The notes beneath the pieces are model-generated. The model had not been told where the DNA came from, made no database searches, and saw nothing but the letters and a program-made list of their open reading frames with translations. From a virus, in the IMG/VR virus record IMGVR_UViG_3300050821_003228, positions 33,818 to 97,817 of that record: a stretch of DNA of 64,000 nt. One strand, written 5' to 3'. Below, piece after piece: positions 6,711-34,038 of this stretch (positions are counted from its first letter, which is position 1; every line of letters begins with the position of its first letter). The translations under genes and the position numbers were made by a program.

Positions 6711-8513
6711 ATGGAACCAGATGTAACAATCCCTCAACCTGTGAGCAGCGGGGCTGTTGATCACCCAGAAGCAGCACAATCTGGCGTCCCTCAATCGCCC
6801 GCTGTACCAGAAGGTTTTGGGGATACTCAGGGACCGCCCCCACCGGCAGGATTTACTGATACTCCTCCTGAACAGGGTAATACCGAAAAACCGGGTTTTT
6901 TTTCAACTCTTGGTTCTGATGTTTTAAACGCGGGTAAAGGATTGCGCGATTTAAGCTATAATACAGCTAATTTTTTAACATCTACGCCTAATAAAGAAGG
7001 TCTTGAACAAGGTAGACAAATACAAGAAGAACATAAACATAAAGTTTATACTCAAATAAAAGATGATCTGCACAACGGCAATTATGTTCAAGCTTTTAGT
7101 CATTTTGGCGATTTGTTTGATCCTCACTACGATGATCCTAATGATCCTATTTCAAGAGTTATACAGGCTCAATGGGATTCTAGTAAACTTGCCAAAGAGC
7201 GTATGATGGAGGCAGCTAAGAACAAAGATTACGCTTCTGTTGTTCAACATGCAGCAGGAATTCTTCCTGTAGCTAGTCAAGTTGATTCAGCAATGGAAAC
7301 GTATAGAAAAGACCCTACGCGAGAGAATTTGGCCCATGTTATTTCATCAGCTATTCCCGCATTTGTTCCTTCTTTAATGAAAGGGGCAAAATACGTGATG
7401 GAAGGGGCCAGCGAGACTTTAGAGGCGGCAAAGGCCACAGGTAAGGCCACTACTGAAGTTCCTAAACCTAATTTAGTGCGCCCATCAACAGTTAAAATAG
7501 CTGGAGAAGATGTGCCAGTAAGTACGCCGCAATTAAGTACACAATCAAAACTATCAAAAGCCGTTTCATCTGTTGCTACTGAAGAGGGGGCGCAAGGATT
7601 TATTGATAGAGAAGTTCAGCCTGCGGCTATTAATGCTACAGGTAATACGTTTCGTGATGTTGCTCAAAAAGCTGTTTCTGATTTACGAGATCTAAGCGGA
7701 GAATCCGGTTCTATCCCTCGTATGGAAACTATTGATGAAATGGCTAAAGCAATGGAAGCTGAGGCAAAAAAGACCTATTCTCGACTTGATGATGCAGGCC
7801 AAAGTGATATAGAGGCTGTTGTTAAGCGTAACAAAGAGGGGGCAGCAGCAGCAAGAGCGGCGGGCAGAGATTTTACGCCACAAGAATTGCCGAAATCTTT
7901 TACCGAATTGCAAGAAGGTATTAATGATGCTAAAGCTACATTGAAATCTCGTACCGCGAGTACAGTCGATAAAGAGCTTGCAAAAAGTAGTTTAAAAGAT
8001 TATAACAGTCAAATGGGCGAGTTTTTAACTAAACACGGCGATTCTGTAAATTATGGCGAATTGGACGCAGCTAACGGAATTTACCAAAGAGCGCAACGTT
8101 TTAAATACATCGCAAAAAATATACGCTCTGCTGTAAAAGGGGTTGAAGAAAGTGATTCTGAATTAAATTCGGTTCCTAGTTCAATTAATAAAGATGCTCT
8201 TGCCAGCTTACCTGCTAAATTTGATAATCGTTTTGGTGAAGGTGCATTTGAAAAAACCCTTGGTAATGAAGGTTTAAAGAATTTTAATGATATAATAAAA
8301 GTTCTACAGAACCCGTTTTCTAAAGCAGGAAATGAAGGGCTAATTAGTACAACAGCTAAGGCCGGGGCAAAAGCAAGTGATTTTATTACCTCTGTTGCAA
8401 AACTTATAGGTAAACCTGTTTCGTGGACAGCCGATAAATTGTTATTTGATCCTGAATTTGGGCAAAGCATGTTAAAACGTTTCGGCCAGTTAAACAGGCA
8501 ACTAAAGCGTTAG
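6711..8513 (+). CDS. Internal virion/ejection protein
   Basis: 600-aa helical ORF with a Pro-rich N-terminus and an AGGA RBS. Confidence 0.5.
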   Translation: MEPDVTIPQPVSSGAVDHPEAAQSGVPQSPAVPEGFGDTQGPPPPAGFTDTPPEQGNTEKPGFFSTLGSDVLNAGKGLRDLSYNTANFLTSTPNKEGLEQGRQIQEEHKHKVYTQIKDDLHNGNYVQAFSHFGDLFDPHYDDPNDPISRVIQAQWDSSKLAKERMMEAAKNKDYASVVQHAAGILPVASQVDSAMETYRKDPTRENLAHVISSAIPAFVPSLMKGAKYVMEGASETLEAAKATGKATTEVPKPNLVRPSTVKIAGEDVPVSTPQLSTQSKLSKAVSSVATEEGAQGFIDREVQPAAINATGNTFRDVAQKAVSDLRDLSGESGSIPRMETIDEMAKAMEAEAKKTYSRLDDAGQSDIEAVVKRNKEGAAAARAAGRDFTPQELPKSFTELQEGINDAKATLKSRTASTVDKELAKSSLKDYNSQMGEFLTKHGDSVNYGELDAANGIYQRAQRFKYIAKNIRSAVKGVEESDSELNSVPSSINKDALASLPAKFDNRFGEGAFEKTLGNEGLKNFNDIIKVLQNPFSKAGNEGLISTTAKAGAKASDFITSVAKLIGKPVSWTADKLLFDPEFGQSMLKRFGQLNRQLKR

Positions 8514-10221: not shown

Positions 10222-10614
10222 ATGTTAGCTAGAGAAGTAGTTTATGGTGGATTAACTCGGGAAGATAATTATGCTCAAGGGTGGTCAAAAGGAAAAAAGA
10301 GTTTAGACAATCTTGTACCAGATCATATGGTGTCTAGACGTACCGGACATGCTTTTACAGAAATGGATTGGATTGTATTTGCGGAAAAGTATCTAAATGA
10401 AGCAAAAAGGGCGTATTCAGATTTTTGTCCCGATATTCGTACAGTTCATGTCCGTATGTTGAAGGCGGCATCACTTTTAGTTTCTGGTTTACAGTGTAAT
10501 GCTGAGGAAGTGGAGAGTATTAGTGGTATTTCTAGTAATAAATTTCCCTTACGGCAAGATGGTGGTGGGTTACAATCTTTTTTAAAATCTGATATAAAGC
10601 AGGACGGTGTTTAA
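10222..10614 (+). CDS. Hypothetical protein, possibly all-alpha NTP pyrophosphatase-like
   Basis: GGAGG RBS; DW..F.EKYL.EA...MLK.A.L pattern; translationally coupled to the DUF5664 gene. Confidence 0.4.
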   Translation: MLAREVVYGGLTREDNYAQGWSKGKKSLDNLVPDHMVSRRTGHAFTEMDWIVFAEKYLNEAKRAYSDFCPDIRTVHVRMLKAASLLVSGLQCNAEEVESISGISSNKFPLRQDGGGLQSFLKSDIKQDGV

Positions 10615-11063
10615 TGTCTGCTTATAGACGAAAAGTAAAGTTAAATATTCCCGCTTTGAAGGCAAGTATTTCTGTATTAGATAAACACGTTAATGGTAAA
10701 GAAGTTGATCCAAAAGGACTTGATCCTAAGACACAAGGGGCAAAATTGGATTTAGGAAAGCCGCCCGTTTTTCAAGGCGTGTTAAGTTATTTTCCTAAGG
10801 CATTGAATGCGGTATCTCTCGTTTCTTTAGCGGGCGCTAAGAAGTATCATTGGAAGGGATGGGAGAAGGTAGAAGACGGGTTTAACCGCTACAGTGATGC
10901 GCTTGGTCGCCATCTGCTGAAAGAATCGTATGAATTATATGATGATGTAGACGATAATGGTAATGAAGGAACGCATTTGCTTCACGCAGCGCAAGTTGCG
11001 TGGAACTCACTCAGTCGGTTAGAATTTCTATTACGCGAACACAAAGTCAGCAGTCAAGGATAA
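10614..11063 (+). CDS. dATP/dGTP diphosphohydrolase (DUF5664-like)
   Basis: K.D.GKPP...GAKKY...W..V.DG..RY.DAL.RH...LH...AWN.L..L signature. Confidence 0.8.
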   Translation: MSAYRRKVKLNIPALKASISVLDKHVNGKEVDPKGLDPKTQGAKLDLGKPPVFQGVLSYFPKALNAVSLVSLAGAKKYHWKGWEKVEDGFNRYSDALGRHLLKESYELYDDVDDNGNEGTHLLHAAQVAWNSLSRLEFLLREHKVSSQG

Positions 11064-12185: not shown

Positions 12186-12372
12186 TTTTCATAATGATCC
12201 TTGAATTGACAAGGTTCTACCGGTTATGATAAACTGGCATTATGTTTGATAAAAGTATACAAACTGAATTAGAAGATTTGTGGAAGAAATTGAATCCATA
12301 TCCAGAAGGAAGTTACAAATGGTATGGATGGAGTTTAGAAGTAGATTGCGAGAATTATCAATTTGATAACAC

Positions 12373-12448
12373 GGACAGTGAGCTAGTTAGGTAATAGCGT
12401 TCGGTTGAAGCCCGAAAGAACGGGGATCGTTACCTCGACTGTCCACCA
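12373..12448 (+). tRNA. tRNA-Phe(GAA)
   Basis: GGACAGT/ACTGTCC acceptor; TTCGG-ttGAAgc-CCGAA; ACCA. Confidence 0.85.
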
Positions 12449-12466
12449 TGTTTAAAAGGAAAAAAA

Positions 12467-12658
12467 TTGCTACAAATTTTAATAGTTTTAATTGTTGTAG
12501 GCGTTTTGTTGTGGTTAGTTAATACATACATCCCGATGGATGGTAAGATTAAGACGATTTTAAATGTTGTAGTAGTCATCTGTGTTGTTCTTTGGTTATT
12601 GAACGTTTTCGGTGTGCTCGGAATGGATGTGCCCGTTCCGCGTGTTCATCGTTATTAA
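12467..12658 (+). CDS. Thivi_2564-like small membrane protein
   Basis: LIVVGVLLWLVNTYIPMD..IK.ILNVVVVI.VVLWLL pattern. Confidence 0.7.
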   Translation: MLQILIVLIVVGVLLWLVNTYIPMDGKIKTILNVVVVICVVLWLLNVFGVLGMDVPVPRVHRY

Positions 12659-12660
12659 GG

Positions 12661-12863
12661 TTTTGATGGGAAGTTGGCTTAGAAGCAGCCATCTTTTAAA
12701 GAGTAGCACTGAACGTGGAACCACTTAAAAAATAGGGCACTCAATTTTAAAACCTATTTGATCCTATACAGGCGGTATAGGTTGAGGACAGTCCCGTATT
12801 GAGCGTTTCTCAGGACGGCCATTTGGCCGATAACACTTTTGGCGTAATAGCACACCATCAAAA
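12661..12863 (+). ncRNA. 23S rRNA GTPase-associated-centre (uL11-binding, H43-H44) mimic RNA with a 137-nt insert
   Basis: GGAAGTTGGCTTAGAAGCAGCCATCTTTTAAAGAG (12669-12703) and GCGTAATAGCACAC (12842-12855) match the conserved 23S 1055-1104 region. Closed by TTTTGATGG/CCATCAAAA. Confidence 0.85.
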
Positions 12864-12870
12864 AGTTTAT

Positions 12871-12958
12871 GCATTGGTTGGGCTAATGGTAGCCTCGCGC
12901 TCTGTAAAAGCGCCTCTCTTAGCGAGAATAGTGAGTTCAATTCTCACCCAATGCACCA
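12871..12958 (+). tRNA. tRNA-Tyr(GTA)
   Basis: GCATTGG/CCAATGC acceptor; GCGCT-ctGTAaa-AGCGC; long variable arm; ACCA. Confidence 0.9.
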
Positions 12959-12973
12959 TTTTAGGAGGAATGA

Positions 12974-13288
12974 TTGAAAGTAAAATTTGAACCGGCACCT
13001 AATAAAGTCCTTGTACGTGTGGCCGATCCTGTAACTATTACGAAAAACGGAATACATGTTCCAGATTCGGCCCAGATGAGGCCAATGGAGGGCGTCATAG
13101 TTAAAATCGGGCCAAATAGTGATACAGTGGATAAACTGACTAAGGGTGTTGTTCATGTCGAACCTCTTTGGAAAGAGAAGGATCACGTTCTATTCGGTAA
13201 GTATGACGGTATTGAAATCAGGATAGATGAAGAGGATTTCCTTCTTTTAAATCATGATCAGATTTTAGGTAAAAGGACAGGCAATTAG
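12974..13288 (+). CDS. groES: Co-chaperonin GroES
   Basis: P..NKVLV...T.NGI.VPDSA....EG.IV.IGP...V.FGKY.G.EI..D.E.FL.L....ILG; GGAGG RBS. Confidence 0.9.
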   Translation: MKVKFEPAPNKVLVRVADPVTITKNGIHVPDSAQMRPMEGVIVKIGPNSDTVDKLTKGVVHVEPLWKEKDHVLFGKYDGIEIRIDEEDFLLLNHDQILGKRTGN

Positions 13289-13472: not shown

Positions 13473-13537
13473 TGACGTGGTGAAGAGTAGAGTTACTTCT
13501 CGATTAGAAAAAACACTCTACTCGTTTGTTCCCGTCA
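13473..13537 (+). ncRNA. Y-RNA-like element 1 (5' leader of the Ro60 gene)
   Basis: TGACG-TGGTG-AA-GAGTAGAG-T-TACTTC-loop-CTCTACTC-GTTTGTTCC-CGTCA; scaffold shared with three downstream copies. Confidence 0.7.
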
Positions 13538-13558
13538 TTTAATTTTCTCGGAGGAGAT

Positions 13559-14947
13559 ATGTCGTCAGTCAATACAGCTACAAAGACAGCAAAATATACG
13601 CATGAAGGCGCGAAGGCGTCTAATATTACGAAGAAACAAGAGCTTCGCCGTAGTGTTACAGCTTGTATGCTTTGGGAGAACACCTTCTATGAAGATGGAA
13701 AGGCGATTGCTGACCGTATCAAGGAATTAGTTCATCAGCTTCCCGGCCAATTTGTTTCAGAATTGGCAATTGAAGCGCGTGAGAAGATGAAACTTCGTCA
13801 CGTTCCGCTGTTCCTAGTTCGTGAATTGGCCCGTCATCCTAAGAAGGCTGAACGACAGTTTGTATCAGATACATTGGCCCGAGTAATTCAACGTCCTGAT
13901 GAATTGACTGAGTATATTGCAATTTATTGGAAAGACGGTAAAGAACCGTTGTCTGCTCAATCCAAACTTGGATTAGCAAAAGCGTTTCTGAAGTTTAACG
14001 AATATAGCTTTGCTAAGTACACCCGTGATGGCGCTGTGAAGCTTCGTGACGCATTGTTCTTATCCCACGCAAAGCCGGGCACGAAGGAACAAGAGAAACT
14101 GTTCAAGAAGATCGTAGATAACACTCTTGTTACTCCTGATACTTGGGAAGTCGCACTTTCAGGTGGGGCCGATAAGAAAGAGACGTTTACTCGATTGCTG
14201 AAAGAGGGCAAGCTTGGTGCATTGGCTCTATTGCGTAATCTACGTAACATGAGTGAAGCCGGGGTATCAACCGAGTTAGTTACAGAGTCATTAGAGAATT
14301 TGGATGTCATTCGCGTACTGCCGTTTAGATTTATTTCTGCCGCGAAGTATGCTCCACAACTTGAATCAGTTCTAGAGAAGACAATGTTTAAAGCGTTGGA
14401 AAGTCATCCTGAATTGCCGGGCAAAACTGTAATGATTGTTGATGTCTCTGGCTCAATGGGCGGCAATGTTTCTGGTAAGTCAGAAATTGGACGAGTTGAT
14501 GCTGCTGCATCTTTAGCAATTCTTCTTCGTGAAATTTGTGAAGATTTTTCAATTTATGCAACAGCGGGTAATGATTATAGTCGTATTCATAAAACGGCAT
14601 TGATTCCTTCACGTCATGGTTTTGCACTGAAAGATTCAATTTTGAAGTCCAAAAATGAATTGGGTGGTGGGGGAATATTTTTGAAACAAGTTATGGATTA
14701 TGTTTATAACTTGGAAAAAAGCAATGATGTCGCTCGTATCATAGTAATTACTGATGAACAAGATTGTGATACTGATCCGGCTAAATCGCCGTCAAAAGCA
14801 AATACGTTTGGTGCTAATAATTATCTGATAAATATAGCTAATGAGAAAAATGGCATTGGCTATGATAAATGGGTTCATATTGATGGTTTTTCTGAAGCAG
14901 TAATAGATTACATTCAAGCCTTTGAAGATCAAGGCGATGAAGATTAA
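13559..14947 (+). CDS. rsr: Ro60/Rsr-like TROVE domain RNA-binding protein with vWA domain
   Basis: L.E..FYE.G, IQRPDELTE, F.EY..AKY, TWE..LS, ALLRNLRN, LPFRF..A, vWA DVSGSM and ITDEQ motifs; GGAGGA RBS before ATG 13559. Confidence 0.92.
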   Translation: MSSVNTATKTAKYTHEGAKASNITKKQELRRSVTACMLWENTFYEDGKAIADRIKELVHQLPGQFVSELAIEAREKMKLRHVPLFLVRELARHPKKAERQFVSDTLARVIQRPDELTEYIAIYWKDGKEPLSAQSKLGLAKAFLKFNEYSFAKYTRDGAVKLRDALFLSHAKPGTKEQEKLFKKIVDNTLVTPDTWEVALSGGADKKETFTRLLKEGKLGALALLRNLRNMSEAGVSTELVTESLENLDVIRVLPFRFISAAKYAPQLESVLEKTMFKALESHPELPGKTVMIVDVSGSMGGNVSGKSEIGRVDAAASLAILLREICEDFSIYATAGNDYSRIHKTALIPSRHGFALKDSILKSKNELGGGGIFLKQVMDYVYNLEKSNDVARIIVITDEQDCDTDPAKSPSKANTFGANNYLINIANEKNGIGYDKWVHIDGFSEAVIDYIQAFEDQGDED

Positions 14948-33538: not shown

Positions 33539-34038
33539 GTTTAAACAAAGATAACGCTTTATCAAAGGAAACCGAATACCGCAAGAAATACGGTCCGCGA
33601 TATACGTATTTATTTAAATGTTCTGAACCAGAATGCACTAAAATAATAAGAGTTAGAAGTGATTATCTTAACCGATCATCGGGTCAATGTAATATTCATT
33701 CTCATCAAAAACGTCCATTTGAAAGTTTATATAACTCATTATATAACGATTGGCGCGGTACTGAAGTAACCTTAACTTATGAAGAGTTTTTAGAATTTAC
33801 AAAAATTAAAAAATGTCATTATTGCAGTTATGGTATTTTGTGGATTCCATTTGGAACGGTAGCGGGAGAGTACAAATCAAGAGCATATTACTTAGATAGA
33901 AAAAATCATAATGAAGGGTACACTAAAGAAAATTGTGTTGTTTGTTGTTCTAAATGCAACATCATTAGGCGGGACCACTTTACATATGAACAATTTTTAG
34001 AAATTGGTAAATTAATAAATAAATGGCGTATTGAATAA
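33526..34038 (+). CDS. HNH-type homing endonuclease
   Basis: LTYEEF...CHYC...LDRK....GYTKENCV.CC..CN; paralog of 38411-38950. Confidence 0.8.
   Translation: MRTVSLNKDNALSKETEYRKKYGPRYTYLFKCSEPECTKIIRVRSDYLNRSSGQCNIHSHQKRPFESLYNSLYNDWRGTEVTLTYEEFLEFTKIKKCHYCSYGILWIPFGTVAGEYKSRAYYLDRKNHNEGYTKENCVVCCSKCNIIRRDHFTYEQFLEIGKLINKWRIE

Follow-up and report, generated by a model that had tools for sequence, protein, structure and literature searches.

A phage RNA family resembling the GTPase-associated centre of 23S rRNA, with a predicted member in the tRNA gene cluster of a soil phage

An RNA gene that resembles the GTPase-associated centre (GAC) of 23S rRNA lies inside the tRNA gene cluster of a 98-kb soil phage, and we find that this GAC-mimic RNA is one of an extensive family of phage RNAs for which we found no database entry or literature description. 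The gene, about 200 nt long, occupies positions 12661–12863 of the window, by which we mean the whole 64,000-nt stretch analysed here (positions 33,818 to 97,817 of IMG/VR record IMGVR_UViG_3300050821_003228); coordinates below are those of the window unless another locus is named. The carrier record, complete at 97.8 kb, has terminal repeats and contains the GAC element once. On our best reading, the locus is predicted to be the gene for a stable non-coding RNA produced from the phage tRNA operon. There is, in our estimate, about an even chance that this RNA serves as a free-standing decoy of the ribosomal stalk base, binding host uL11, ligands aimed at the GAC, or both.

Two segments of the element, 12665–12703 (39 nt) and 12841–12859 (19 nt), match the 58-nt GAC (H43/H44) of 23S rRNA without gaps. 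GAC positions are given here in the conventional E. coli scheme (1051–1108), from which the fetched annotated rrl copies are offset, with a variant near 1054. Relative to the fetched E. coli rrl copy used for comparison, which has G at 1054, the two halves are identical at 47 of 58 positions; relative to the canonical E. coli 23S copy the identity is presumably 46 of 58. An ungapped match in two halves had been proposed by an earlier, sequence-only reading of the window, and both direct reading and the rrl comparison bear it out. When the 5′ half was used as a BLAST query, 23S rRNA was matched in every one of the complete E. coli genomes (5426/5426, E ~4e-6), so the resemblance of this half to 23S is not a matter of chance. 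The best BLAST matches are biased towards variants that resemble the query, as seen with the two E. coli rrl copies ranked highest against the phage 5′ half (L122 and L327): these carry variants of the 1054 region, GCCGTGGGATG and GCCGGGATG, the canonical sequence being GCCAGGATG.

The element, read on the plus strand, is closed by a 9-bp helix (P1) in which UUUUGAUGG at 12661–12669 pairs with its complement CCAUCAAAA at 12855–12863 around a GAUGG/CCAUC core. Within the 5′ strand, 12665–12669 corresponds to 23S 1051–1055, and the 3′ strand comprises 1104–1108 plus an extension. UUUU at 12661–12664, an extension absent from rRNA, and AAAA at 12860–12863 lengthen the closing helix to 9 bp. The H43 mimic (1057–1081, with the A1067 loop) spans 12671–12695 and is the same as in E. 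coli except for a compensatory swap at 1058:1080, which is A-U in the window and U-A in E. coli. It is followed at 12696–12703 by the junction 1082–1086, with its U1082:A1086 pair, and the 5′ strand of H44 (G1087, A1088, G1089), then at 12704–12840 by a variable insert of 137 nt, of predicted structure, placed at the 1089/1090 junction, and at 12841–12853 by the 3′ part of the H44 mimic (1090–1102, with the A1095 loop).

All H43 pairs (1057–1059/1079–1081 and 1062–1065/1073–1076) and the 1082:1086 pair are present in the window, and so are U1060, A1088, G1071, C1072, G1091:C1100 and C1092:G1099 of the tertiary core. The equivalents of A1067 (12681) and A1095 (12846) are intact, as the sequence-only reading had held. 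It had also described the differences from E. coli as compensatory, and pairing is indeed kept at each paired position that differs (1052/1053 with 1106/1107, 1105, 1108 and 1058:1080). The other three differences, G1089, G1090 and A1101, all flank the junction of the 137-nt insert. The entire element folds with z = −2.99 relative to shuffled sequences.

The same layout of two halves plus an insert was recovered by BLAST from about 20 named phages among 50,697 phage records. Enterobacterial and Xanthomonas carriers include Serratia phage BF, related Erwinia and Xanthomonas jumbo phages, XacN1, Cronobacter phage GAP32 and Pectobacterium phage CBB; Pseudomonas carriers are Astolliot, Milchi, pf16 and UNO-G1W1; and the layout is also found in Aeromonas phage 4_4572, Ralstonia phage RSP15, Acinetobacter phage ME3, one Vibrio phage and one Paenibacillus phage. 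Scanning IMG/VR with a 17-nt motif from the 3′ half gave at least 117 loci, and among the matches listed 107 had the 5′ half within 600 nt upstream. A second, independent IMG/VR scan was anchored on the 5′ half alone, and its counts are likewise lower bounds. In total, we collected at least 177 elements with both halves, at least 139 of them unique and nearly all on phage contigs; the homologues on which the sequence-only reading depended are thus abundant. In 596 Gb of bacterial and archaeal genomes, the 3′-half 17-mer had 120 matches, about 7 of which came with a real 5′ half and the rest of which fit chance. Since only these ~7 true elements occur in so much cellular sequence, we conclude that the family is essentially phage-borne.

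Rfam covariance models returned no LSU or other family over the element, either at the gathering score across the window or at E ≤ 10 across 12400–13000. The split, partial LSU match that had been expected from the sequence alone did not appear at either threshold. At 14 other loci the Rfam scan gave tRNAs and one SRP-like match away from the element, and nothing else. Rfam 15 has no family for a GAC-mimic RNA and no description was found in full-text literature searches, which agrees with the earlier, sequence-only reading, whose author knew of no such system. The definition of the family was drawn up in the present analysis; the window element has both halves, G1089/G1090/A1101, an insert at 1089/1090, an extended P1 and a tRNA-array setting, and the helix that closes its insert has only 2 bp in the register that covaries across the family.

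Comparison among members shows that selection acts on the secondary and tertiary fold of the GAC and on the exposed A1067 and A1095. Among the matches listed, 89 unique elements had the following states at 1058:1080: U-A in 35, A-U in 24, G-C in 22 and C-G in 5. In the same 89 elements, the 1057:1081 pair was A-U in 77, C-G in 11 and G-C in 1, and the tertiary pair 1082:1086 covaried as well (U-A 41, C-G 28, A-U 14). All four Watson-Crick types were seen at 1051:1108 and 1052:1107, and outward to about 1047:1112. U1060, A1077, A1084, A1085, G1087, A1088 and the G1059:C1079 pair were invariant, A1067 was present in 82/89, and G1089, an A in E. coli, in 88/89, all again among the matches listed. 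G1071 and C1072, both of which lie inside the 5′ search motif, were invariant or nearly so. Together, G1089, G1090 and A1101, where E. coli has A, A and U, form a signature of the family.

The 3′ half was fixed by design in this first sample and was therefore re-measured in the 5′-half-anchored sample of 84 unique elements. Here, among the matches listed, A1095 was conserved in 82, U1094 in 83 and A1101 (U in E. coli) in 82; G1091, G1093, A1098 and C1100 were each present in all 84, and C1092 and G1099 in 83 each. Positions 1096 and 1097 varied, and 1104–1108 covaried with the 5′ strand of the closing helix. Conservation within each search motif is biased by the way the sample was gathered, and several tertiary-core positions lay inside motifs. 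In alignment A1 (MAFFT, 36 members, specified structure), 89.9% of paired cells could pair, versus 68.9% in shuffles, and the covariation score was 0.522, versus 0.131 in shuffles and 0.09–0.18 when partners were slid. Helices 2–4 of this alignment were 91.7–99.1% paired, with changes on both sides of the pairs.

These data bear on whether the element could be non-functional, having arisen by capture of an rRNA fragment, as what remains of an intron with its exon flanks, or through chimeric assembly. Contiguous rRNA identity breaks the assembly graph at 12669–12698, and HNH endonuclease genes are common nearby, both of which speak for such an origin. However, compensatory changes and a closing stem that is absent from rRNA are kept across at least 139 unique members, and no intron or other Rfam family falls on the element in the window or at the 14 loci. 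A decaying rRNA fragment is ruled out because the GAC pairs covary and the family signature is kept; the sequence-only reading had likewise favoured selection on the fold over decay, and family-wide covariation, rRNA-free flanks and placement next to a tRNA all agree with it. A chimeric assembly with host rRNA is excluded because finished isolate phage genomes share the layout and because the contigs that flank the rRNA-like words are matched in depth, at 23.1 and 22.2 in the likely source DNA run. The one RNA run that shares words with the element, a soil metatranscriptome, covers only 12669–12704, and its contigs continue into the genuine 23S of other organisms, so that this match does not bear on the phage RNA. 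We give a non-functional origin next to no probability, and regard the covariation data as having in effect refuted it.

The element lacks the features that define rRNA genes, ribosomal-protein leaders, group I introns and Y RNAs. The nearest object is the rRNA domain itself, to which uL11 and thiostrepton bind. The bacterial 23S GAC has the same helices, tertiary core, 1082:1086 pair and A1067/A1095 loops; the phage element, in contrast, is a free-standing gene in a tRNA array and no part of rRNA, an extended stem of its own closes it where rRNA continues into H42, and it has G1089/G1090/A1101 and an obligatory, helix-closed insert at 1089/1090. It does not qualify as a bacterial LSU rRNA gene or fragment, given the absence of an LSU_rRNA_bacteria match even at E ≤ 10 and flanks that consist of a small ORF on one side and tRNA-Tyr on the other, with no other rRNA, as had been noted from the sequence. 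A group I intron with rRNA exons was also rejected: no intron family was found in the window or the 14 loci, inserts go down to 29 nt, and the stem outruns the rRNA homology.

The closest concepts are ribosomal-protein leaders, "ribosome-in-pieces" oligonucleotides and modular Y RNAs. Cis-regulatory leaders of ribosomal-protein mRNAs are likewise RNAs outside the ribosome that copy a ribosomal-protein site of rRNA. They sit upstream of the regulated ribosomal-protein gene and usually mimic shape with little sequence identity, whereas the phage RNA is a near letter-for-letter rRNA copy with no ribosomal-protein gene downstream. The leader assignment was rejected, with tRNA-Tyr and GroES downstream and a uL11 domain in 0/40 carrier genomes. 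"Ribosome-in-pieces" oligonucleotides, according to PMC3496166, are isolated GAC and SRL (sarcin-ricin loop) RNAs that, away from the ribosome, fold and are able to bind EF-G or IF2; they are laboratory constructs, whereas the phage RNA is a natural conserved gene, in three lineages of which GAC and SRL are joined. Y RNAs (YrlA), which associate with Ro60/Rsr, are modular phage and bacterial non-coding RNAs with a closing stem and a tRNA-mimic module, often near tRNA genes (PMC4201824); the phage element mimics rRNA, not tRNA. A Y RNA with a Ro60 partner was also set aside, with no Rfam Y RNA match and TROVE in just 5/40 carriers despite a Ro60 gene 0.66 kb downstream in the window.

In the window, the element is part of a co-directional run that comprises a promoter-like site, a small ORF, tRNA-Phe, a small membrane ORF, the GAC element, tRNA-Tyr, GroES, two tRNAs and Ro60/TROVE. 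The nearest upstream promoter-like site, identified by consensus scan only, is TTGACA-18-TAAACT with TG at 12206–12235 (+). Between this site and the element, the scan for terminator-like sites returned none save H43 itself. The promoter-like site could drive a co-transcript that runs through the GAC RNA to GroES. The small membrane ORF just upstream of the element encodes 63 aa, is hydrophobic and ends at 12658. ARAGORN places tRNA-Tyr (GTA, long variable arm) at 12871–12958 (+), 7 nt downstream of P1, in keeping with the adjacent tRNA-Tyr described from the sequence alone; its Rfam tRNA score is 27.2 bits, under the gathering score of 29, and its reverse strand gives a spurious Plastid-ycf2 match. 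The GroES (Cpn10) homologue at 12974–13288 (+) directly follows this tRNA in the co-directional unit of the GAC RNA, and the ORF with TROVE (Ro60) and vWA domains lies at 13526–14947 (+), 0.66 kb downstream of the element. TROVE and the GAC RNA are not tightly linked, as the domain occurs in only five of the 40 carrier genomes. Elsewhere in the window, an ORF at 10614–11063 (+) matches the dATP/dGTP diphosphohydrolase N-terminal domain (PF18909, E = 1.6e-13); phages with modified DNA bases are known to carry this family.

The tRNA setting recurs across the family. At 67 of 108 loci tRNA genes were found; a same-strand tRNA lies within 60 nt downstream of the element at 19 and within 60 nt upstream at 28, and none of the tRNAs adjoining the element at this distance is on the opposite strand. 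In XacN1 the element has a promoter-like site (TTGACT-17-TAATAT) on one side and a GC-rich hairpin with an ensuing U-run on the other, and since it is bounded in this way it looks like a discrete gene. For the window, we propose that processing of the tRNA transcript sets the RNA free: RNase P, acting at the 5′ end of tRNA-Tyr, would cut 7 nt past P1 and probably set the 3′ end of the RNA. The 5′ and 3′ parts would then assemble into a self-closed copy of the GAC (H42 tip, H43 and H44), with the 137-nt extra domain branching off the 5′ strand of H44.

This extra domain is the variable part of the family. Every member has an insert at 1089/1090, of 29–332 nt, with a U and one strand of a stem at its start and the partner strand and UUU at its end. 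The first three pairs of the insert-closing helix covary, the first pair being G-C in 19, A-U in 12, U-A in 3 and C-G in 1. Insert subfamilies are mutually unrelated, some have conserved modules, and minimal members carry a bare hairpin of 29–45 nt. A second expansion site, after A1077 on the 3′ strand of H43, holds a hairpin of 20–47 nt in 13 unique members (L097, L099, L016, L078 and L028 among them). The window insert had no relatives in a blastn-short search against all collected elements or in an IMG/VR scan with a 19-nt insert motif; folded alone, it has z = −1.36 relative to shuffles. The hairpins and pseudoknot proposed for it by the sequence-only reading are a thermodynamic prediction only.

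One module at the 3′ end of the insert, CACCCCGGARACGGUAAGGCYGAAUCCC, is shared by about 20 members (L001:3120–3160, L040, L064 and L105 among them). It forms a 3-bp stem with a mostly GNRA-type tetraloop, the third pair of which covaries, followed by a UAA bulge; the window insert is without it. Inspection by eye suggested a kink-turn in the conserved insert module, but the idea was dropped because the G.A/A.G positions vary.

The insert also matters for what the RNA may do. A pure decoy does not need an obligatory insert, nor modules that are conserved in some subfamilies, and because the insert is both obligatory and variable there is room for a reading in which the RNA is a scaffold with cargo. 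By analogy with the tRNA-like module of Y RNAs, the variable insert would be the working part and the GAC a compact, nuclease-resistant handle, maybe capped by uL11. The obligatory nature of the insert, its range of lengths, the modules conserved within subfamilies and the two fixed insert sites, 1089/1090 and after A1077, are consistent with this idea. However, members with a bare 29–45-nt hairpin exist, and the GAC with its exposed loops is the sole element conserved across all members, so that we hold a scaffold role to be highly doubtful.

In three lineages (L077, L245/L246 and L264), the insert contains an SRL hairpin, AGUAC-GNRA-GGAA with the bulged-G motif, located 75–85 nt before the 3′ half and ~225–242 nt into the element. 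The stems flanking this hairpin differ among the lineages, and shuffling gives an expectation of 0.16 matches. SRL-bearing elements make up ~2% of unique members; in them, both halves of the ribosomal factor-binding site, GAC and SRL, are found in one RNA. When inserts were compared by blastn-short with E. coli 23S, 16S and 5S rRNA, other rRNA-like pieces amounted to chance words, with two exceptions, the SRL 13-mer in L077 and a 1095-loop-like word in L015. The L015 word, TAATAGCTCAC, is a second 1095-loop-like word in that element and is closer to true 23S than the element's own 3′ half. In the genome of the window phage, the search for a second SRL-like site gave merely a 12-mer with 1 mismatch. 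On the L245 contig, from an uncultured phage, a hairpin at 7587–7630 (−) reaches the Rfam gathering score for the bacterial small SRP RNA (RF00169, 40.7 bits versus a cut-off of 40). It covers model positions 24–66, the Ffh-binding domain IV, and lies ~0.8 kb downstream of the GAC-plus-SRL RNA, within one tRNA array; possibly this, too, is a part of the translation machinery that has been copied.

We then asked which protein might recognise the GAC copy. All-against-all clustering of 1930 neighbouring ORFs revealed no conserved protein partner; the largest cluster was found at 10 of 89 unique loci, with HNH, YunG-like, TerD, P-type ATPase and CCA-adding enzyme as the leading clusters. Domains of uL11, GTP_EFTU and RelA_SpoT were detected in none of 40 carrier genomes, 20 of which are at least 90% complete; in the control searches they were recovered from 14/14, 14/14 and 11/14 reference genomes, respectively. 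With no such domain in the carriers and no conserved neighbour, any GAC-recognising protein must be either the host's or an unrecognised, unlinked phage protein. Because the phages encode no uL11 of their own, the folded RNA would most likely assemble with host uL11 into an RNP. The isolated 58-nt GAC domain is known to fold unaided and to bind uL11 tightly.

The lead idea of the sequence-only reading was that the RNA captures free or exchanging uL11, leaving uL11-short ribosomes that fail to activate RelA and so blunting the stringent response. uL11 is needed for RelA activation, the isolated domain binds it, the fold-critical nucleotides are all conserved, and no carrier has its own uL11. 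A1067 and A1095, however, are dispensable for uL11-CTD binding and folding, and their conservation exceeds what that binding needs. Moreover, the free pool would be far smaller than ribosome-bound uL11 in a short infection, and capture of uL11 gives no role to the SRL add-on of some members. We consider it quite unlikely that depletion of uL11 is the whole function. That A1067 and A1095 are kept, and that some members add an SRL, argues for selection on more than uL11 capture.

EF-G, the tRNA elbow and thiopeptides meet the ribosome at a surface made up of A1067, A1095 and the N-terminal domain of uL11. In our preferred reading, a decoy of the stalk base, the RNA would show its A1067/A1095 face to a ligand that usually docks there, so that this ligand is diverted from ribosomes during infection. 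Candidate ligands are uL11 itself (with lost RelA activation), factor or tRNA complexes, and GAC- or SRL-directed toxins. The variable pairs depart from host rRNA, as with A1082:U1086 in Serratia BF and G1058:C1080 in Astolliot, so that the ligand has to recognise shape and not a host-specific sequence; this does not tell the candidate ligands apart. Any such decoy must compete with the tens of thousands of ribosomes in a cell, which counts against it.

Among the candidate ligands are the translational GTPases and tRNA complexes. The RNA with uL11, and with the SRL in some members, could act as a miniature docking site that binds, sequesters or re-tunes these GTPases or the tRNA elbow/acceptor, in A/T- or A/R-type complexes (EF-G, IF2, EF-Tu-tRNA, RelA-tRNA). 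The presence of GAC and SRL in one molecule in three lineages fits this proposal. Free SRL RNA binds EF-G (Kd ~4 µM) and IF2 (0.67 µM) (PMC3496166), an oligonucleotide of the thiostrepton domain is another ligand of EF-G (Munishkin and Wool 1997, as cited in PMC3496166), and in the RelA complex the A/R tRNA is contacted by A1067 as well as by the SRL (PMC5829649). Yet the SRL is limited to ~2% of unique members, affinities are micromolar for factors that are very abundant, and sequestration of general factors would also hurt phage translation, which makes action through these factors alone very unlikely.

Alternatively, the RNA could serve strictly as bait or pseudo-substrate, sparing ribosomes from enzymes directed at the GAC and, in SRL-bearing members, at the SRL. 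Such enzymes would be RNA ADP-ribosyltransferases, nucleases or N-glycosidases of the host or of competitors, in parallel with phage tRNAs that replace or outcompete nuclease-hit tRNAs. The exposed target loops are kept, the element sits in tRNA arrays, and three lineages have SRL hairpins, the SRL being a classic toxin target. Free SRL oligonucleotides retain sarcin/ricin specificity (reference 31 in PMC3496166), and the interbacterial toxin Tre23 ADP-ribosylates H44 at 1095–1098 and cripples the GTPase of EF-G (PMC8661411). On the other hand, stoichiometric decoys block catalytic toxins poorly, and 1096 and 1097, within the Tre23 footprint, vary freely in the family. In addition, we know of no anti-phage defence system that targets the GAC. 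A role confined to toxin baiting thus seems unlikely to us.

Tentatively, and with a probability well short of even, these RNAs may be off-ribosome mini-replicas of the factor-docking site, made of the GAC, host uL11 and, in some lineages, the SRL, that capture GTPases, RelA-tRNA or rRNA-aimed defence enzymes. The question is directly testable, as the family is large, its sequence variants run into the hundreds and it occurs in phages that can be cultured. If this proposal is true, the RNAs would give studies of uL11, thiopeptides, GTPase docking and RelA activation a minimal GAC (and GAC plus SRL) construct that is natural and has been tested by evolution, and they would hint at undiscovered host defences or toxins aimed at the stalk base. 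They would represent a new class of viral counter-measure that copies a functional centre of the ribosome. Phages would then copy, besides tRNAs, such a centre and use it in trans, which would open a new chapter in the conflict between viruses and hosts over translation.
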